DNA of 37,459 nucleotides. It comes from an uncultured Candidatus Saccharibacteria bacterium (GTDB lineage Bacteria; Patescibacteriota; Minisyncoccia; Phycocordibacterales; Phycocordibacteraceae). The notes beneath the pieces are model-generated. The model made no database searches. It saw nothing but the letters and a program-made list of their open reading frames with translations, and had not been told where the DNA came from. The stretch covers positions 1 to 37,459 of the forward strand of contig CAZYRK010000005.1 in assembly GCA_964650475.1 (NCBI GenBank). Reading direction: 5' to 3'. The stretch's first letter is position 1. Each line of letters starts with the position of its first letter. Shown here piece after piece: positions 3,863-37,459 of the stretch. Position numbers and translations under genes: made by a program.

Positions 3863-5677
3863 ATGTTCGTCATCGATGTAATTCCTTTTGCAAGACACGC
3901 ACCAGCGAACGCACTTTCGTATCGTTTTAAAGAAAAGCTGTCTGTAGGCACTATTGTCTCCGTACCACTACGAAAAAAAATCGTTTCGGGTATTGTTGTC
4001 AAATGTATTAGTGTCCACGATGCAAAATTTGCATTGAAAACAGCCCCTTTTGTACTTCGTGCTGGAACACTGACAAAAACAGGAGCGCTTCCAGATTTTT
4101 ATGGCAGTGCCTTTGAGTACACCGCAAGATATCACTTTCTACCTCTTGGAAATATTTTGCGCGCCATGTTACCGGAAGCGATACTTACAAACGGGTTTTC
4201 ATCTGGAGACTTACTTAAAGGAGACAGTAACGAACATTTCTTTTGCGAGACCACCTACGAATCCAGAATTGCAAAATATCTCTCGTTACAAAAAGGAGAT
4301 AATGGTACCGTTCTTATAATCACCCCAACAGCGATAGAGGCTGTACGACTGTTTGAAAAAATAAATGACTCAGTGTTGATAACGGGGGCCCTCACTGCCC
4401 CAACACGTAAAAAGGCTTTCTCTAAAACATGGGACGCTGAGTTTGTAATAGCTACCCCACAATATGCGTTTGTACCAATTCAAAAGATATCTCATATTGT
4501 AATTGAAAACGAAAGCGCTCGTAGTTACAAAACAATAACAACTCCTCCGATTGACATGCGAATCGCAATCCGCGCTTACGCAAAAGAACGAAATACACCC
4601 ATCACGTTTGGTGACTATCCTCTACGGATAGAGGTTCGCCCAAAACCAGACGCCCCACTCGCGAGCGTCTCCGCGATACAAATACATACGGTAGACATAC
4701 GCAAAAAAAAGACGGAGCAAGACGCGCAAAAATTCGATGCAATTCCACTGCCAATACGCACGAAAATTACACAAGAAATGTCCAAAAACGGTCAAGTAGC
4801 AATACTGGCAACAAGAAGAGGTTACGCGAGCACTATTGTGTGTCGAGATTGCGGTACTGTTGTAAAAGACAAGAAAGGTAAGATACTTACACTCGCCACT
4901 GTTTCTGGAAAAAGAATTCTGCGGTCATCTGATAACACTACAAAACAAAGCGCTAAAACATTATGTGACCTATGCGGGAGCTGGAACCTTATACCTCTTG
5001 GCGTTGGCGTAGAAAGAATTGCGGAATCAATAGCAAAACATTTTCCTAACGAACAAATTATTCGTTTCGATACAGATGTTATCAAAACGCGCAAAATGGC
5101 AGAAGATGCCGTATCTCGCTTTTCAAACCCACGCACAATCATCGTTGGAACAGAGGCGCTTATTCCTTGGCTTAATCCATTCGCAAAACTCTCTATGGCA
5201 ATCATAGCTTCCGCCGACTCATTACTCTCACTTCCGTTTTGGCGAGCGCGGGAGCGACTACTCCACATCACTTGCGCACTTAGTGAACGGGCAGAAAAAG
5301 TTTTGGTCGTTACTCGCCGTCCAAACGACACGGTCTTCCAAACAATTTCCGACACGAGTGATAACGCTTTTTTCTCTGAAGAAACATCTTTGCGAAAAAT
5401 GCTAAATTACCCGCCATTTGCTCATATAATAACCGTTCATATAGAAAACACAGAGGAAGACCTAGAGCAAGACGAGAAACGCATCCGCGAGCTTTTTAAT
5501 TCGCAAGCTCACTTTACACAACTTCCCGATCGACAAACCACAAAAAACAAAACTCTGCGAACACTTGTCGGCAAACTTAAAAAAGAAGTGCCGTACCCTC
5601 TTTCCGAAAGCGAAAAGAAAATCGCGCACCTGCCTCCATGGATAACCGTACAGATAGACTCGGAATCGATATTCTAG
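3863..5677 (+). CDS. priA: Primosomal protein N' (PriA), degenerate helicase motifs
   Basis: 604 aa; N-terminal LSVGTIVSVPLRKK 3'-binding domain, RRGYA, CRDC...CDLC, GVGVERIAE, RFDTD, IIVGTE, LNYPPF. Confidence 0.88.
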   Translation: MFVIDVIPFARHAPANALSYRFKEKLSVGTIVSVPLRKKIVSGIVVKCISVHDAKFALKTAPFVLRAGTLTKTGALPDFYGSAFEYTARYHFLPLGNILRAMLPEAILTNGFSSGDLLKGDSNEHFFCETTYESRIAKYLSLQKGDNGTVLIITPTAIEAVRLFEKINDSVLITGALTAPTRKKAFSKTWDAEFVIATPQYAFVPIQKISHIVIENESARSYKTITTPPIDMRIAIRAYAKERNTPITFGDYPLRIEVRPKPDAPLASVSAIQIHTVDIRKKKTEQDAQKFDAIPLPIRTKITQEMSKNGQVAILATRRGYASTIVCRDCGTVVKDKKGKILTLATVSGKRILRSSDNTTKQSAKTLCDLCGSWNLIPLGVGVERIAESIAKHFPNEQIIRFDTDVIKTRKMAEDAVSRFSNPRTIIVGTEALIPWLNPFAKLSMAIIASADSLLSLPFWRARERLLHITCALSERAEKVLVVTRRPNDTVFQTISDTSDNAFFSEETSLRKMLNYPPFAHIITVHIENTEEDLEQDEKRIRELFNSQAHFTQLPDRQTTKNKTLRTLVGKLKKEVPYPLSESEKKIAHLPPWITVQIDSESIF

Positions 5678-11594: not shown

Positions 11595-11972
11595 TTAAAA
11601 AGGTATCAATGTTTTTGCGTCAGTTGAACTCGCAGAACCTGTAAAAGAGTGACTGACTTCGACTATTTGTAAATGAGGCGCCTGTTTTATGCTCTTATGC
11701 ATTACAGCCGATCCGGCGGCGGCTACAAAATCGGAATTGTTTACATTAGGTCTTCCTGTATCATAAACCGCTGCGGCATCCAACACTTTCTGGCTTTTCT
11801 CAAACGAAAGCGCTGGTGAGAGCATCGGAGCAAAGAAACCTCCAGTAGAAGTTAATGATGTTGTAATCCATATTATAGCTATAAAGATAGTTGCTCCCGT
11901 AGCAACACCAAACGCAATGCGCTCACGAACATGCACCGGCTTTGCTTTTAATCTTTGGATAAAATCGTTCAT
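11595..11972 (-). CDS. Hypothetical single-pass membrane protein
   Basis: 125 aa; one TM helix; ATGA overlap with upstream gene and co-oriented with gyrA. Confidence 0.65.
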   Translation of the reverse strand: MNDFIQRLKAKPVHVRERIAFGVATGATIFIAIIWITTSLTSTGGFFAPMLSPALSFEKSQKVLDAAAVYDTGRPNVNNSDFVAAAGSAVMHKSIKQAPHLQIVEVSHSFTGSASSTDAKTLIPF

Positions 11973-22521: not shown

Positions 22522-23345
22522 TACTCTTCGCAACCGATTTAGATCGCACACTTTTGCCAAACGGACCTGCTCCAGACGATAAAAACACCGCCGAGCTTTT
22601 TAGAGAACTCGAGAAAGTCCCCCACCTGCTTGTTTACGTTACAGGAAGAAACCTCGACATGGTGCGCGAGGCGGAAGAAAAATACAGCATCCCGACACCA
22701 GACTACCTCATTGCCGAAGTCGGCACAGCCATGTTTAAAAAACAAAACATGGCTCTTGTGCCGGAAACGCGCTGGAACGAATACATAACGGCGCATGAAC
22801 AAAAATGGAATCGTGAAAAAATAGAGGAGTCCATTGGCACGAAGCACGAGCTCGTACTTCAAGAAGAGTGGAAACAAAACCACTTCAAGATAAGCTACTA
22901 TCTGCCAAGCACTGCCTCAAAAAAAGACGCTCTCGAGCATATCGGCAACGTGCTCGCGGATATTGGCATTCATGCAAACGTTTTGTGGAGCGTCGACCCT
23001 CTTGCAGACAATGTCGGGCTCATAGACATACTCCCAAAGACAGCTACAAAAGCCACCGCACTTGAGTTTTTGCGTGAGCAAGAGTATCTTTCCAAAAAAG
23101 ATGTCGTGTACTGCGGAGACAGTGGAAACGATATCCAACCACTCACAAACGGCTACAGATCAATTTTAGTTAATGATGCCCCGGAAGATGTAAAAGAAAC
23201 TGTTTCCAATATCGTCGCAAAAAACGGCAACTCCGACACCCTATACATAGCGCACAAAACAAAAAACCTAAACGGAAACTACGCCTCCGGCATCCTAGAA
23301 GGACTCATCCATTTTGGAATAGTGCCCGGCACGGAAGCGGAGTAG
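22518..23345 (+). CDS. HAD-IIB phosphatase, sucrose-phosphate phosphatase-like
   Basis: 275 aa; TDLDRTLLPNG motif I, YVTGR, PDYLIAEVGT, KISYY, IDILP--ATKATAL, GDSGND; ATGA overlap with the GH gene. Confidence 0.85.
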   Translation: MILFATDLDRTLLPNGPAPDDKNTAELFRELEKVPHLLVYVTGRNLDMVREAEEKYSIPTPDYLIAEVGTAMFKKQNMALVPETRWNEYITAHEQKWNREKIEESIGTKHELVLQEEWKQNHFKISYYLPSTASKKDALEHIGNVLADIGIHANVLWSVDPLADNVGLIDILPKTATKATALEFLREQEYLSKKDVVYCGDSGNDIQPLTNGYRSILVNDAPEDVKETVSNIVAKNGNSDTLYIAHKTKNLNGNYASGILEGLIHFGIVPGTEAE

Positions 23346-23402
23346 TGCACGCGACATAAAATAAACAGCCTACACGCCAAACAAAAGCAAAAACAAGCCG
23401 GC

Positions 23403-23939
23403 TTAGTCCTGCTCTCCACTACCTTTCGCTACGTACCTTTCTCTCCATTCGTTAAGAATTTTTGCTAAATCTTTCGCTTTTTTATTGTACGTATCTGGCA
23501 AACCTCCATCTGCTCCGGAGACGGATTTTGACAGTTCCTTACCAACATCCGATGCAATACTTTCATCCGATGCAATACTTTCTGAATCAAAACTTTGACT
23601 GTAATTAAAAGTAACTTTTTTTGCACCACCCAACAAGAAAAATCCGATATATTTAGTTCCAAAACTCTCCACATCACTCCATTTTGTAAAAGTACTTCGA
23701 GACATTACACATACTTCAAACCCTTTTTCAGATAAACGGAGATAAGAACGTTTGTGTGAAAAATTTATAACCGCCACAAAAGAACTAAAACCAAAGAATA
23801 TTAAAATCAGCCAACCAGTAAGGTCTCCCGTACTCGCCAACCAGACACCTCCTACAGTAAAGAACAGCGATATACTTAAAATTACAAACGACTTTAATTT
23901 GCTTGGATACAGGACTAAAGATTTTTGATTTTTATTCAT
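23403..23939 (-). CDS. Hypothetical membrane protein (two N-terminal TMs plus PH-like beta region; STM3941-like)
   Basis: 178 aa; LVLYPSKLK, two TM helices, LRLSEKGF, I-WSDV-type motif, LAKILNEWR; internal ESIASD duplication. Confidence 0.65.
   Translation of the reverse strand: MNKNQKSLVLYPSKLKSFVILSISLFFTVGGVWLASTGDLTGWLILIFFGFSSFVAVINFSHKRSYLRLSEKGFEVCVMSRSTFTKWSDVESFGTKYIGFFLLGGAKKVTFNYSQSFDSESIASDESIASDVGKELSKSVSGADGGLPDTYNKKAKDLAKILNEWRERYVAKGSGEQD
23547..23582. repeat. In-frame 18-bp tandem duplication
   Basis: ATCCGATGCAATACTTTC x2, encoding ESIASD-ESIASD on the minus strand. Confidence 0.9.
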
Positions 23940-24116: not shown

Positions 24117-24650
24117 TTATTTTTCCATAAGAGAAATTAGTTTATTTAATTCTGTGATACTTTTTCTCCTTTCCTCAAATAACGCTTTTGGGAATGTCTT
24201 TTTATACTCATTTATATCTCTTCGTTTTTTCTTCTCGATATAATCTGATTCAAATTCTTTTTTACACCACGCCGAAGTTTTGTTTATAAACAACTCACCC
24301 TCACGTAAAACCGACAATAACAACGCTTCAAGACATGGCAAATTTTCTATTAACTCTATACTTCTTGATTTTGCTTCTTTACGCGCTCCTGTAATTTCTT
24401 GCTCACCCTTATCATTATCTACAACCACAATACGATTATCAAAACCACCGATTTCGTTCACTGCGCAAACAACAACATCTTTTGGTGTACCGCCTTTGCC
24501 ATTTCGAATAGTTACAGATATACCACTATTGCGATTATACAGCCCTCGCAAATACTTTAAAAACATTTCCTCGCCAAGACCTTCACCATATATAAGAAGA
24601 GTCTGTTTTGCAGCATGCCGTTTCTTTTTATAAGGATTCGTTCGCGACAT
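24117..24650 (-). CDS. RloB / AbiLii-like TOPRIM-related protein
   Basis: 177 aa; LIYGEG-GE--FLKYL, VVVDND, LPCLEALLL; directly downstream of an AAA_21 ATPase. Confidence 0.75.
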   Translation of the reverse strand: MSRTNPYKKKRHAAKQTLLIYGEGLGEEMFLKYLRGLYNRNSGISVTIRNGKGGTPKDVVVCAVNEIGGFDNRIVVVDNDKGEQEITGARKEAKSRSIELIENLPCLEALLLSVLREGELFINKTSAWCKKEFESDYIEKKKRRDINEYKKTFPKALFEERRKSITELNKLISLMEK

Positions 24651-24662
24651 GATAGCGTAATC

Positions 24663-25874
24663 TTATTGAAGTTTTGGCACGGCACCATATGCACCAGCAA
24701 TGTATTTAGTGTAATAATTTTCGTCTGATCGCACGCCAGAAACATCATCAAGTCGCCAAGCTTCACTAACGCCACTCTTATTTTTCTCTACAAGCACAAC
24801 TTGGTATTTATCCAGTTTGTTCAAAATTACATGGCTGTGTGTACTGAAAAATAACTGAGCATCGTGAGGATTTGTTTCCGGCTGCACAAACAAATCAAAA
24901 AGTGCCATTACCATTTCCGGATGCAGGTTTACATCAAACTCGTCAACAACCGCTATACTTCCATACATCAATGCCGTCAAAATACTTTTCAAAAGTACGA
25001 ACAACTGCTTTGTCCCCGACGATTCATAATTTAAACTTAGAGGATATTTTTCGCCGTCTATAGTATGAACAGCATGAGCATGCAAGTTTACCCCGTTTTC
25101 TGTCGCTTTTTTTATAATTTCAAATTCAGACAAACCAAGATCAAAACGAGAAAGTAATTTTTCAGCTTCTTCTTTAAGCACCTTGTTTTCGCTGTAAAAA
25201 TTAAGTGCTTCAAATAACTGCTGTGTGGCATTTGGCAAAAGCTGTCCACCAACCCAACCGGCTTCTATCACGTTTGTTTCCAACCGTTGCCATGCTGTAG
25301 CGATATCGCGACTTTCTTTATGTTCCAATCGCGCCGCTGTACTAATAACACTTGCATTTGTGCGAAGTAGATTTTCAAAATCTTTTGGCAAGCCAAAACT
25401 ATCTCCGGAAAATTCATACTGTTTTTTATCTTTATTCCATGTGCGAGAAAATACTTTCTTGCTTGATTTCTTTTCTTTAATGAACTCTGTTAACCTTAAT
25501 TCCTCTGATAAAATTTTGTATTGTGTAAGTTTAAAACTATAGGTATATACTTTGCCATCCACCTCAAAAACAACCGAAAGCTCTATAGCTTTTTTTTTGT
25601 TTTTGCCGAATGCAAAATTCTTCACAGGCAATTGCGCGCCTGGGTCAGACTTAAAAGAATCGGTAATAAGCCACTTTAAAAAAGGTAAAATCTTTAGAAG
25701 ATTTGTTTTTCCGGATGCGTTTGAACCAATTACCGTGATTACTTTTGAAAGACGCGTACCTGATTTAGACTCAAAATAGCCATTATTTTTAGGAGCGTTA
25801 TCATTAACAACAAAGTCAACGGTCGTTTCATCACCAAACGAATAGAAATTCTTGCAAGTAAATGAATGTATCAT
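24663..25874 (-). CDS. RloA / AbiLi-like ABC-type (AAA_21) ATPase
   Basis: 403 aa; FTCKNFYSF, Walker A GSNASGKTN, signature ESSGTKQ, Walker B VVDEFD--LHP, FSTHS, Y-AGAYGAVP. Confidence 0.85.
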   Translation of the reverse strand: MIHSFTCKNFYSFGDETTVDFVVNDNAPKNNGYFESKSGTRLSKVITVIGSNASGKTNLLKILPFLKWLITDSFKSDPGAQLPVKNFAFGKNKKKAIELSVVFEVDGKVYTYSFKLTQYKILSEELRLTEFIKEKKSSKKVFSRTWNKDKKQYEFSGDSFGLPKDFENLLRTNASVISTAARLEHKESRDIATAWQRLETNVIEAGWVGGQLLPNATQQLFEALNFYSENKVLKEEAEKLLSRFDLGLSEFEIIKKATENGVNLHAHAVHTIDGEKYPLSLNYESSGTKQLFVLLKSILTALMYGSIAVVDEFDVNLHPEMVMALFDLFVQPETNPHDAQLFFSTHSHVILNKLDKYQVVLVEKNKSGVSEAWRLDDVSGVRSDENYYTKYIAGAYGAVPKLQ

Positions 25875-26204
25875 GATTTTGTGATTAAAATGATAATTTT
25901 CTTATCATTGCAAACATAACAAATAAATACCTGTTTTGCAAGCATTTCCACGAGATTTTGTGGAAACTTGAGAAAAGTATCCTGTTTTAGGCACTTTTAT
26001 TAAAAACCCTCAGTAGTTTTTCAAACCAAAAAAACGACTTCCCTGTTCCTTGCACGCCCTAATTAAGGTACATAACTAACTCTACCGCACCACGGCCCTA
26101 CTTTCCTACTTTCACTTAAATGAAAACCAAAGCTACATGTTCTCGCTTTTTTGTCATCGCCAAATTTCATGTCTGTAAAAAACCGCACGCTCCCCAAGCA
26201 GGCG

Positions 26205-26861
26205 TTATAACTTAAACTTTTTAAGTAACTCAACCTCGTGGCCTGAAAATGGCTGGCAAAATATTTGTTGATTACCAAAAGTCAAAATCTTTTCTCCGGT
26301 GTTATTAAAATGATTTGCCACACCGCTACCGAGCAAAAAGATAGAATCCTCCTCGGTCGCTACAGCAAAAACAATTTTAAGATTGATAAAATCTTTAATC
26401 CATTTATCTAAATATCCTCTATCTATTCTACTTGTTGAATAGATTGTATAAATGTTGTCTCGCTCCTTAAGTTTCTCAAATGCGCTTTCAATGCCTTTGC
26501 GGTTTTTGTAAACCATATCGCATTCCTCAATATGGATAAAAATTTTCTTATCTGTTTTTAAATCACTTATTTCGTGGAGAACATTTATCGCCTCCTCGGG
26601 TTCACTAATAACCGGTTTTATTAAATAATCAGATGACCAGTTATAGAAATCTGTTTTTGTCATATCAAGAAAAACGAAACCAATTTCGTCTGGTGAATAT
26701 TTCTCGACTAATTCTTTATAGAAATTAAGGTGAAATATACTTTTACCTGAAGCGGTTTGACCAGCCAATAACACGAAATTTATTTTTTCTTTATCAAAAT
26801 CTATCTCGATTTTTCTCCCATTTTTATCATTCCCTAAATATATTTTTTTCATACTTTTCAA
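26205..26861 (-). CDS. Stand-alone FtsK/SpoIIIE-like P-loop ATPase domain
   Basis: 218 aa; IYLG-DKNG, VLLAGQTASGKS Walker A, FVFLD; Walker B position reads IFIHIEE. Confidence 0.75.
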   Translation of the reverse strand: MKSMKKIYLGNDKNGRKIEIDFDKEKINFVLLAGQTASGKSIFHLNFYKELVEKYSPDEIGFVFLDMTKTDFYNWSSDYLIKPVISEPEEAINVLHEISDLKTDKKIFIHIEECDMVYKNRKGIESAFEKLKERDNIYTIYSTSRIDRGYLDKWIKDFINLKIVFAVATEEDSIFLLGSGVANHFNNTGEKILTFGNQQIFCQPFSGHEVELLKKFKL

Positions 26862-26924
26862 TCAAAAAATTATAAAATATTCTGTCCCCGCTTCACTTCG
26901 TTTCGCTGAGCTTCGCGACGACTC

Positions 26925-26952
26925 GGTTCGAATCCTCCCCGCTCTCGCAAAA
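26925..26952 (+). repeat. Degenerate inverted copy of the tRNA-Ser T-arm/acceptor 3' end
   Basis: + strand GGTTCGAATCCTCCCCGCTCTCGCAAAA versus tRNA-sense GGTTCGAATCCCTCCCTCTCCGCAAAA (27014-26988, minus). Confidence 0.7.
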
Positions 26953-26992
26953 GCATAGTCCCGAAACAGCATGCCTTTTGCTCCTTGTTTTG

Positions 26993-27079
26993 CGGAGAGG
27001 GAGGGATTCGAACCCTCGATACAGTTGCCCGTATGCCGGTTTTCGAAACCGGTGCCTTCGACCACTCAGCCACCTCTCC
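26993..27079 (-). tRNA. tRNA-Ser(CGA), long variable arm, CCA not encoded
   Basis: GGAGAGGTGGCTGAGTGGTCGAAGGCA-CCGGT-TTCGAAA-ACCGG-...-GAGGGTTCGAATCCCTC-CCTCTCC-G. Confidence 0.97.
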
Positions 27080-27136
27080 TTTCGCGCGTAAAACTAAACG
27101 CTACGCAGGTATCCTAACATATTTTGTATACAAAAA

Positions 27137-27180
27137 GGACGCAGCCCTCTGCCTTCCGTAAAAGGCACAGGGCTGCGTCC
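27137..27180 (-). terminator. Long hairpin terminator after the small acidic ORF
   Basis: GGACGCAGCCCT-C-TGCCTT...AAGGCA-C-AGGGCTGCGTCC, followed on the minus strand by TTTTT (27136-27132). Confidence 0.7.
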
Positions 27181-27194
27181 GAAAGAACGGAAAG

Positions 27195-27302
27195 TTAGGC
27201 AGCAGCCTCGCCTTCCGTTGTCGGCTGTGCATCCGTTGCTGGCTGCGCGTCCGTAGTGGTCTCTTCCTGAGTTGCCTCTGTGTTCTGTGTTTCGTTGTCC
27301 AT
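27195..27302 (-). CDS. Small acidic low-complexity peptide (35 aa)
   Basis: MDNETQNTEATQEETTTDAQPATDAQPTTEGEAAA; own terminator immediately downstream; TDAQP repeated twice. Confidence 0.5.
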   Translation of the reverse strand: MDNETQNTEATQEETTTDAQPATDAQPTTEGEAAA

Positions 27303-27677
27303 ATTATTTTTGGTTAGACGGACCTTTTCAAAAGAAAAAACCCGTCTTGTAATTAGACTGGCAAAATTCGACCTGCACACATAAAGTTACCATGTAGCGG
27401 GCAAGAAATCAACCACGCAAGCCGTCATGTGTGACAAACCTTTTAGCACCCCCCACATCACTATATCTCTACTTTAGTTGTTACAAAAGCTCTTGTCTTT
27501 CTCCAAAAACATTATTTACATACTTCATTGAGCTCAAAATAACCTGTGCGAAAACGAGCCTTTTGTTGCCCGATATTAAGACACGGAATTTCGTACTCCC
27601 CTACCAGCTCATTTTTTCTCTAGATTAAATGGTGGCAATTATCGTACAAAAATGGCATAGTATCATCTACAGGTTAT

Positions 27678-27752
27678 GGCCCTATCGTCTAACGGCTAGG
27701 ACAACGCCCTTTCACGGCGTAAATCGGAGTTCGATTCTCCGTGGGGTCACCA
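27678..27752 (+). tRNA. tRNA-Glu(TTC), CCA encoded
   Basis: GGCCCTATCGTCTAACGGCTAGGACA-ACGCC-CTTTCAC-GGCGT-AAAT-CGGAGTTCGATTCTCCG-TGGGGTC-ACCA. Confidence 0.97.
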
Positions 27753-27869
27753 ATATTCTTAATAAACCGTTTCGTAGATATACAGAATTGTAACGGTGGC
27801 GGTATAACGCCAATTATTGTATATTGCATAATAGCTTTTGCGATACTTTCGCATAGCCAAAACTAGCTT

Positions 27870-27946
27870 GCGCGGTTAGCTCAGTTGGTTAGAGCGTCCC
27901 CTTGACGTGGGGAAGGTCGGGGATTCGAATTCCTCACCGCGCACCA
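27870..27946 (+). tRNA. tRNA-Val(GAC), CCA encoded; atypical A53-U61 and G37
   Basis: GCGCGGTTAGCTCAGTTGGTTAGAGCG-TCCCC-TTGACGT-GGGGA-AGGTC-GGGGA-TTCGAAT-TCCTC-ACCGCGC-ACCA. Confidence 0.94.
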
Positions 27947-36297: not shown

Positions 36298-36650
36298 TTG
36301 GGAAGGTCTAACCTTCCCAACTTTCCAAACTAAAAAGTACGCGGTACGTTTGCGATGGATAGGGAAAGACCCGGGGTGAGCGGTCTCGAGCGTCTCTGCC
36401 GACACTTAGTGTCGGCAGAAAGTAATGTAGCTAATGTAGCGCGGGGCTTTGCGGACACTTAGTGTCGGCAGAGAGAGAAAACCACGCGATACGTTGCAAG
36501 AGCGTGAGGAAAATCTAGTGGCAAGCTCCACTACGGGGCTTTGCGGACACTAAGTGTCCGCAAAAGACACTTAGACACTTTGCGGACACTTAGTGTCCGC
36601 AAAAAGAGGCCCGCTAGAATTAACAGCTAAAAACCTAAGCGGTACGTTGC
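36298..36650. repeat. Mosaic palindromic repeat cluster downstream of tRNA-Phe (modules A, B, C)
   Basis: A 36298-36320; B 36339-53, 36484-97, 36637-50; C core GACACT(T/A)AGTGTC at 36401, 36454, 36546, 36585. Confidence 0.9.
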
Positions 36651-36670: not shown

Positions 36671-36747
36671 TGGTGCCTGGGGTCGGATTTGAACCGACGA
36701 CCCTTCGCTCTTCAAGCGAACGCTCTAACCAACTGAGCTACCCAGGC
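36671..36747 (-). tRNA. tRNA-Phe(GAA), CCA encoded, G37
   Basis: GCCTGGGTAGCTCAGTTGGTTAGAGCG-TTCGC-TTGAAGA-GCGAA-GGGTC-GTCGGTTCAAATCCGAC-CCCAGGC-ACCA. Confidence 0.97.
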
Positions 36748-37437: not shown

Positions 37438-37459
37438 TGCCCTCGGCAGGAATCGAACC
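37438..37459 (-). tRNA. 3' end of a tRNA truncated by the window edge (identity uncertain, possibly Arg)
   Basis: Minus strand GGTTCGATTCCTGC-CGAGGGC-A: T-loop, T-stem and acceptor 3' strand; anticodon lies outside the window. Confidence 0.75.

Follow-up and report, generated by a model that had tools for sequence, protein, structure and literature searches.

Escherichia coli carries 22 tRNA-linked repeats (TLRs) in ten loci, and the 3' 18-19 bp of these elements are identical to the 3' end of whichever tRNA or rRNA lies upstream (PMC8144298). TLRs are transcribed and processed, and a function is known only for the three members that are linked to rRNA (PMC8144298). As far as that paper cites them, the primary sources for TLRs and for the RtT (RttR) element of the tyrT operon are Egan and Landy 1978 and Rudd 1999. 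The 178-nt repeats of E. coli tyrT/tyrV have three parts, in this order: (i) GGGGAAGGAU...UUCGACC, a degenerate inverted tRNA-Tyr end, (ii) GC-rich hairpins, (iii) AAUCCUUCCCCCACCACCA, the direct copy. In the consensus of the Rfam family RtT (RF00391), GGGGAAGG pairs with CCUUCCCC as the closing helix and CACCACCA stays free. The subject of the present analysis is an inverted copy of a tRNA 3' end that lies behind a tRNA-Ser(CGA) gene of an uncultured Candidatus Saccharibacteria bacterium, in a 37,459-nt stretch of DNA (contig CAZYRK010000005.1, positions 1 to 37,459; hereafter the window). With a probability of roughly 0.8, the segment 26891-26955 (-), which contains the copy, is the 5' third of a TLR/RtT-like unit that once followed this tRNA gene.

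The inverted copy and the TLR-like units of Patescibacteria

Four features, all on the strand of the tRNA gene, make up the region concerned:

26993-27079, - strand: tRNA-Ser(CGA), intact, without an encoded CCA (ARAGORN; Rfam tRNA 59.2 bits)
26953-26992, - strand: tRNA trailer and spacer hairpin, the trailer being GCAAAACAAGGAGC (alignment A2 with L148, L149 and L150)
26925-26952, - strand: inverted copy of the tRNA 3' end, corresponding to the P1 5' strand of a TLR-like unit (positions ~4-31 of covariance model R1)
26891-26924, - strand: P2 5' strand and loop of the unit, GAGUCGUCGCGAAGC...CGAAACGAAGUGAAG (R1 match; 26-mer identical in L148/L149)

On the + strand, 26925-26952 reads GGTTCGAATCCTCCCCGCTCTCGCAAAA and resembles a tRNA 3' end; on the - strand, the 3' end of tRNA-Ser(CGA) with its trailer reads GGTTCGAATCCCTCCCTCTCCGCAAAA. 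An earlier note on this DNA had described an inverted, partly diverged copy of the tRNA 3' end at this place, with 11 nt exact, and the description is borne out: the 11 T-arm bases match exactly and 13/17 of the following ones do, for a total of 24/28 with one gap. The copy does lie downstream of the tRNA gene as the note had it, at a measured distance of 40 nt (26952 vs 26993) instead of about 35 nt. Chance is excluded as the source of the likeness. With up to 3 mismatches allowed, the 28-mer matches nowhere else, nor does it match in any of 100 shuffles; the 11-mer, with 1 mismatch allowed at most, is found in tRNA T-arms and at the copy site only (4 occurrences vs 0.64 expected); and the alignment score of the part beyond the T-arm is equalled by 23/5000 shuffles. 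The arrangement is real DNA and no assembly artefact, as three independent assemblies agree on it. Logan contigs from two samples (L004, L005) span the copy with 100% identity, and L026, a single NCBI metagenome contig from a strain that is 2.2% diverged, covers 25941-27910.

The copy had also been taken for one of the tRNA's own end. Its derivation from a tRNA stands, but the end is not simply that of the resident gene: allowing for a one-base bulge, three positions differ. The partner that the copy implies, with T-stem CCTCC and acceptor CCGCTCC (CCTCC-CCGCTCC-G), looks like the end of another tRNA-Ser. Given the three mismatches, the lost direct copy, or the tRNA from which the unit came, was not identical to tRNA-Ser(CGA). 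A parent tRNA whose 3' end equals the copy was sought by exact match: genome contigs and viral contigs gave none, and the metagenome scan returned the same species only.

That the segment is homologous to a structured, tRNA-linked family and is a truncated member of it can be stated plainly. A motif common to the window and locus L035, GGATTCGAACCGA-GTCG-CGAAGC, occurs in nine loci, 8/9 of them from Patescibacteria, and all nine lie directly behind tRNA genes, mostly tRNA-Ser. The covariance model R1, with 172 positions, was built from seven intact units. These fold into a three-way junction composed of P1, in which the inverted and the direct copy pair over 16 bp, P2 (GUCGCGG...CCGCGAC) and P3. 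In the seven-unit alignment, 91% of the cells are paired and 18/43 pairs show compensatory changes, values which no shuffle reaches. A scan with R1 and a second motif, at a cut-off of E <=0.001, yielded 74 R1 matches in 69 loci, all from Patescibacteria or from metagenome-assembled genomes of unclassified bacteria; R1 has no match in loci titled as other phyla. The alignment of the 74 matches (A3) has 90.9% of its cells paired and compensatory changes in 39/43 pairs, values reached by 0/500 shuffles and, since A3 was fitted to the model, somewhat inflated in the pair counts. It scores 0.42 for covariation, where shuffles score 0.15 and slid controls, with 37-49% of their cells paired, at most 0.085. 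Half of the R1 matches (37/74) lie at most 120 nt 3' of a tRNA on the same strand, with a median distance of 37 nt, and 13 more lie at 150-415 nt; tRNA-Ser accounts for 21/37 of the matches within 120 nt. The units of Patescibacteria are a well-defined structured family with strong covariation and a clear preference for tRNA-Ser.

In one member of this group, Kaiserbacteria HyVt-514 (L149, 1791-3411), two near-identical TLR-like units, scoring 135 and 131 bits, stand behind tRNA-Ser(GCU) and flank 1.1 kb of low-GC DNA. The open reading frame (ORF) of this insert encodes 167 aa and is NYN-like by reading alone.

In the 37 kb of the window, R1 finds one place only. When the stretch is cut at 26891, the match scores 39.5 bits (E 2e-12), covers 26891-26955(-) and model positions 1-67/172, and carries a flag for 3' truncation; a full-length match, when forced, reaches 16.9 bits only, its 3' two-thirds being mismatched. 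The segment begins 37 nt past tRNA-Ser on the same strand, which is also the median of the family. Its - strand, UUUUGCGAGAG...GGAUUCGAACCGAGUCGUCGCGAAGC, aligns with units that stand directly behind tRNA-Ser in Kaiserbacteria (L148, L149), Saccharibacteria (L150, L151) and Parcubacteria (L035, L153), and a bulge is common to all of them. Read on that strand, 26925-26952 is UUUUGCG-A-GAGCGGGGAGGAUUCGAACC, the single bulged base being typical of the Patescibacteria family, and its homologous positions are found in L035 and L148-L153; GGATTCGAACCGAGTCGTCGCGAAGC, with the same one-base bulge, is the sequence 3' of tRNA-Ser in other Patescibacteria. Alignment A2 shows what the window has conserved, namely the trailer, the spacer, UUUUGCG, the bulge, the inverted copy and the P2 5' strand, with a 26-mer identical to the Kaiserbacteria units. 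Homology to the intact units stops after ...GAAGUGAAG. Where other units go on with the P2 3' strand and CGACGAGUGG, the window has AT-rich DNA that leads towards an FtsK-like gene.

Missing from the window are thus the P2 3' strand, all of P3 and the P1 3' strand, that is, the direct repeat. With the 3' two-thirds gone, the inverted copy is an orphan half-helix: P1, a covarying pairing in intact units, has its 5' strand but no partner strand and cannot form. The 3' repeat of ~18-19 nt by which TLRs are defined is absent from the window because the unit is truncated; it is present in L035, L111, L151 and L153.

The intact units resemble the TLR/RtT elements of E. coli in several respects. They lie immediately 3' of a tRNA, on the same strand and often in tandem, their end copies the tRNA 3' end, their 5' inverted copy forms the closing helix, and their internal hairpins are GC-rich. 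They differ in that the window and L035 have no detectable similarity to the E. coli elements in sequence or to the Rfam model, in the motifs of the Patescibacteria units (GGAUUCGAACCGAGUCG, CGACGAGUGG, CCAUGAGAGUGACCGAAUCC) and in the spacer hairpin before the unit; the window copy, being truncated, also lacks the 3' repeat. With the Rfam RtT model there is no match in the window at E up to 1-10, and Rfam 15, RtT included, has no match in L035 or L111, the two members of the family that were scanned. The same model aligns over its full length, below its gathering score of 45 bits, with two gammaproteobacterial loci right behind tRNAs (L071, 37 bits; L108, 26 bits) and gives 137 bits on the E. 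coli control. The Rfam family sX4 (RF02223), a small RNA of Xanthomonas, also extends over tRNA-Ser, trailer and inverted T-arm, in the window at 26929-27081 (-) with 29.1 bits and in L051 at 3883-4051 with 38.8 bits, both under the 70-bit gathering score. The two matches suggest a comparable layout for the sX4 seed, and the sX4 family may itself be a tRNA-Ser together with the start of a TLR-like unit.

An intact unit, read on the tRNA strand, runs from the tRNA end through the trailer and spacer hairpin to the inverted copy, ~100 nt of hairpins and the direct copy. In the unit RNA, the closing helix of the inverted and the downstream direct copy would produce an end that resembles an acceptor/T-arm minihelix. 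By analogy with the E. coli TLRs, and from their strand and position, intact units would be co-transcribed with the tRNA and released by the tRNA-processing enzymes. At the locus under study the unit breaks off inside P2, at ~26881-26891, and an AbiL island stands where the distal part would be, having probably arrived by recombination in or beside the unit. What is left is probably a relic without a function of its own. A side effect on 3' processing of pre-tRNA-Ser, or on read-through to the co-oriented island genes, is conceivable, as the read-through RNA can fold back and no terminator lies between; the conserved features point to no such effect.

Several points weigh against this account, beyond the inflated pair counts of A3. 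No direct repeat and no 3' part of a unit exists anywhere in the window, so that an intact ancestor at the locus is inferred. The nearest relative with the same synteny, L014, is without any unit; the unit may have arrived recently, or may have come in along with other DNA. The link to the E. coli TLRs is one of architecture, neither the window nor L035 matching Rfam RtT. Finally, there is a variant in run X6, from a strain ~1% diverged. Its 1039-nt contig corresponds to 26289-26940, comprising island, part of P2 and the inverted T-arm, and then enters a different flank. The break at 26940 falls exactly on the T-stem/acceptor border inside the inverted copy and the + strand continues as CCACTCTGCCAATTTTCACTTTTACTCGAA; 30 bases of the other flank are visible, and in this run 26951-26977, in the version of the window, is at depth 0. 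In the X6 strain at least, the fragment thus travels with the island side. The variant suggests that units at different tRNA loci have undergone exchange, or that the junction has another history.

The layout in other prokaryotes

The note had proposed a systematic search for inverted tRNA 3' copies near tRNAs. Such a search, made in one genome per GTDB species for two facing T-arms 45-75 nt apart (GGTTCGAATCC-N45-75-GGATTCGAACC), returned at least 120 loci from bacteria and archaea, so the pattern is not unique to this locus. The counts given from it, here and below, refer to the 129 matches, 81 distinct loci and 35 units among the matches listed. One tRNA and one inverted T-arm that belongs to no tRNA make up 121/129 matches. 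The loci have a common order: the tRNA is followed by a hairpin or terminator and by the inverted T-arm, which in many cases takes in part of the acceptor strand; after ~100 nt of GC-rich hairpins, the tRNA 3' end is repeated directly from the T-loop on. In 35/81 distinct loci there is a direct repeat that is exact over 14 nt or more, typically 85-135 nt past the inverted arm, and several loci have two or three units in tandem. The minimum free energy (MFE) fold pairs the inverted with the direct copy in 21/35 units.

The E. coli TLR layout is no enterobacterial curiosity: it recurs in Collinsella (Actinomycetota), Bacillota, Bacteroidota, Gammaproteobacteria, Patescibacteria and haloarchaea. 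Collinsella units follow at least six tRNA species (Val, Glu, Gln, Ser, Arg and Lys), often in tandem. Since Patescibacteria genomes are tiny, an abundant and conserved structured RNA in them deserves attention. The interest lies in the family that the fragment has exposed; the fragment itself is a truncated member of the TLR-like kind.

Some observations concern single groups (L028, L029, L030, L059, L067, L080, L094, L144 and other loci of the facing-T-arm scan). In Collinsella, compensatory changes and GNRA loops are seen in the internal hairpins. Three units of 142 nt are found in Butyricicoccus (L067), and a Saccharibacteria locus (L094) has two different units in a row. At some Collinsella tRNA-Glu sites, a terminator and an inverted T-arm are all that precedes unrelated DNA, a truncation like that of the window.

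Other origins were considered and rejected. A group II intron or a known ribozyme, hinted at by GUGCG after the inverted T-arm in Collinsella, has no Rfam match. A retroelement primer-binding site does not fit, as the inverted copy, read by eye, usually ends at the T-arm and leaves the CCA end uncovered. Tandem-inversion duplication or template switching at a hairpin would leave the foreign, covarying middle of ~100 nt unexplained.

A wider proposal is tentative, and on balance doubtful: TLR-like units might make up one pan-prokaryotic class of RNAs or elements, small and structured, each with a copy of the acceptor/T-arm end of the tRNA it follows; they would move between tRNA loci with their closing helix re-matched, and serve as landing pads, or portable homology, for the capture of cargo. 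If so, the window would record one such capture, with the AbiL island fused into a unit and a sister strain carrying the same fusion next to another flank, and the orphan inverted copy might still influence how pre-tRNA-Ser is processed, or how far transcription from the tRNA promoter reads through to the defence genes. Units do mark sites of foreign cargo in L149, in the window and at the truncated Collinsella sites, and they may help to map the borders of islands at tRNA genes that are without the usual direct repeats. The function of TLRs has been open for more than 40 years, and a broad comparative set would make it testable.

Other explanations of the inverted copy

Of the alternatives to a truncated unit, a recombination scar, which the note had put forward as an inversion-type event, is very unlikely. 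A tRNA-targeting integrase, acting at the near-palindromic T-loop core TTCGAA, would have inverted or mis-oriented an att copy and left an inverted attR-like fragment beside attL. The setting would suit such an event: tRNA-Ser has a variable hot spot on its 3' flank, where the cargo between the S6PP gene and tRNA-Ser differs among relatives, the island is low in GC and foreign, and the X6 variant breaks at the T-stem/acceptor border of the copy. Inversions driven by the pTN3 integrase between tRNA genes are documented in Thermococcales, as far as PMC5495485 describes them, so that recombination at tRNA sites can give inverted arrangements; those inversions are large and lie between full tRNA genes, whereas the piece in the window is the inner part of a 160-nt unit. 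The islands of tyrosine integrases, such as tycheposons (10.1101/2020.12.28.424599), likewise have a partial tRNA 3' copy at the border of foreign low-GC cargo, variable tRNA-proximal cargo and tandem partial tRNA copies. Their attL and attR are, however, direct repeats that flank the element, and an integrase is present; the copy in the window is inverted, stands between tRNA and cargo, and has neither a second repeat nor an integrase with it. The island thus has neither of the two marks of an att-bounded element, flanking direct repeats and a recombinase. None of its four main ORFs matches a recombinase or integrase family in Pfam or PADLOC, no recombinase was seen among the ordinary-looking genes beside 13 TLR-like loci whose neighbouring ORFs were read by eye, and the far end of the island has no direct repeat. 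The same inverted copy, with its flanks, is the conserved inner part of 74 structured units, a regular built-in component whose partner lies ~100 nt further downstream, and hence no one-off rearrangement. In the public runs X1-X3 no empty site was found, the depth of the island being about that of its flanks with no clean skipping joint; the X6 variant breaks inside the copy, at 26940. A relic left at a recombination junction is the sole form, and a weak one, in which the idea of a scar survives. The literature was searched for inverted fragments of tRNAs at att sites, and nothing specific came up apart from the TLR paper (PMC8144298).

The second proposal of the note, a cis-antisense switch, is very unlikely as well. 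Here the copy would be kept so as to pair with the T-arm and acceptor of tRNA-Ser in a read-through precursor, and would gate cleavage by RNase P/Z, read-through to the FtsK-like and AbiL genes, or both. The predicted fold gives some reason to consider it, and the note was right that a read-through RNA could fold back on the T-arm and acceptor: the MFE structure of the 200-nt RNA pairs the two copies at -74.6 kcal/mol (z -2.15), as a thermodynamic prediction. The spacer hairpin at 26953-26992 is weak (-10.6 kcal/mol, z +0.88) and no more stable than shuffles; no terminator-like site, that is, a GC-rich hairpin with a T run on the tRNA strand, was found in 26500-27700, between the tRNA and the co-oriented island genes; and the copy is unchanged in two strains ~2% diverged. 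Invariance at 2% divergence says little, though, as the 140-nt spacer region has 4 changes overall, and three mismatches and a bulge weaken the duplex. The copy is a piece of a larger element, now truncated, whose own partner is a downstream direct repeat. In the scan, inverted identity reaches at least 6 bases beyond the T-arm in 14/81 distinct loci only. The relative L014 has the same synteny without the copy, and X20, the only RNA run with any of this DNA, holds nothing but tRNA 30-mers.

A second, convergent tRNA gene on the + strand, its 5' part deleted by the island, can practically be dismissed: the + strand does read T-loop, T-stem, acceptor and trailer, then a hairpin and a T-rich run, and 26885-26952 is GC-rich relative to the island, but no T-stem can form on the + strand upstream of GG, where the sequence is instead the conserved P2 helix of the TLR-like family matched by R1, ARAGORN finds no tRNA there and Rfam tRNA none at E up to 10 with truncation allowed, L014 has no tRNA at that place, and in the scan 1/129 matches is a true convergent pair.

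The low-GC island and neighbouring observations

The truncated unit stands at the edge of a defence island. As the note had recorded, the copy is followed on the - strand by the purine-rich stretch GCGAAGCTCAGCGAAACGAAGTGAAGCGGGG and then by the island, 3.5 kb in which GC drops from ~0.45 to ~0.35, between ~23370 and ~26890. All four island genes are on the tRNA strand (-). From the unit outwards, the features are:

26881-26890, no strand: zone of the break, where the truncated unit meets the low-GC island (end of homology, GC drop)
26205-26852, - strand: FtsK/SpoIIIE-like P-loop protein of 215 aa, the first island gene (Pfam PF01580, E 1.3e-8; 63 homologues)
24663-25874, - strand: AbiLi, an AAA_21 ATPase (PADLOC AbiLi, E 6.9e-75; Pfam AAA_21)
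24117-24650, - strand: AbiLii, RloB-like (PADLOC AbiLii, E 3.5e-12; Pfam RloB)
23368-23939, - strand: left end of the island, made up of a predicted membrane protein (23403-23939) and the boundary to the S6PP gene (GC profile)

The AT-rich region upstream of the FtsK-like gene begins at 26881-26890, and is also seen in L023 and L024. At the left end, no direct copy of the tRNA 3' end is present at 23340-23470, nor is there one elsewhere in the window; the sole similarity at that border is an A-rich match of 19 nt, no better than background. Assembled contigs break at 23367. In runs X1-X3, a minor path with ~10% of the depth departs at 23367 and rejoins at 23588 by way of contigs of 2.5-3 kb. 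This path represents alternative cargo where the island has its left edge, and is the second point at which the region is polymorphic. Within the ORF of the membrane protein, 23546-23581 is an exact tandem duplication of 18 nt, CATCCGATGCAATACTTT, one copy of which is absent from the X5 strain.

Within Patescibacteria, the organism is Parcubacteria/Kaiserbacteria-like. When genomes were scanned with the S6PP protein, no close relative came up, and the relatives compared here were taken from the protein database. In these, the stretch from S6PP to the tRNA block holds differing genes each time, which makes the tRNA-Ser 3' flank the variable hot spot referred to above. In L014, the order is S6PP ... 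tRNA-Ser(CGA)(-) - tRNA-Glu - tRNA-Val - SpoU, with other cargo; this locus has no inverted copy, no R1 match and no second tRNA at the place in question.

Two homologues of the FtsK/SpoIIIE-like protein, in L018 (4211-6648) and L024 (6893-7848), with 73% and 67% identity, are encoded just 3' of tRNA-Gln(CTG) on the same strand; by its genomic positions, the family of this gene seems to move along with islands that lie close to tRNAs. A fragment that was part of the FtsK-like island family was considered and rejected, the homologous islands being without it though two of them follow tRNA-Gln. As R1 has no match in the loci of the FtsK-like homologues (L018-L025), the fragment belongs to the tRNA locus and not to the island.

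Smaller features were seen around the tRNA genes. On the 5' side of tRNA-Ser, between it and a small acidic ORF at 27195-27380 (-), a hairpin at 27137-27180 has 19-nt arms that are 95% complementary, and L014 has an analogous hairpin in the equivalent place, at ~11770-11815. CCA is encoded in tRNA-Glu, tRNA-Val and tRNA-Phe, and is not encoded in tRNA-Ser(CGA) and tRNA-Ala(CGC) (429-502, 26993-27079, 27678-27946, 36671-36747). Downstream of tRNA-Ala, at ~300-370 on the - strand, stands a long perfect hairpin, CCCACACACAGAGAACCGCGCGCC-GAAG-GGCGCGCGGTTCTCTGTGTGTGGG, and downstream of tRNA-Phe, at ~36480-36600 on the - strand, there are repeated palindromes, GCGGACACTTAGTGTCCGC. At the end of the window, 37449-37459 on the - strand reads as a T-arm-like GGTTCGATTCC, probably a tRNA gene that is cut by the window edge.

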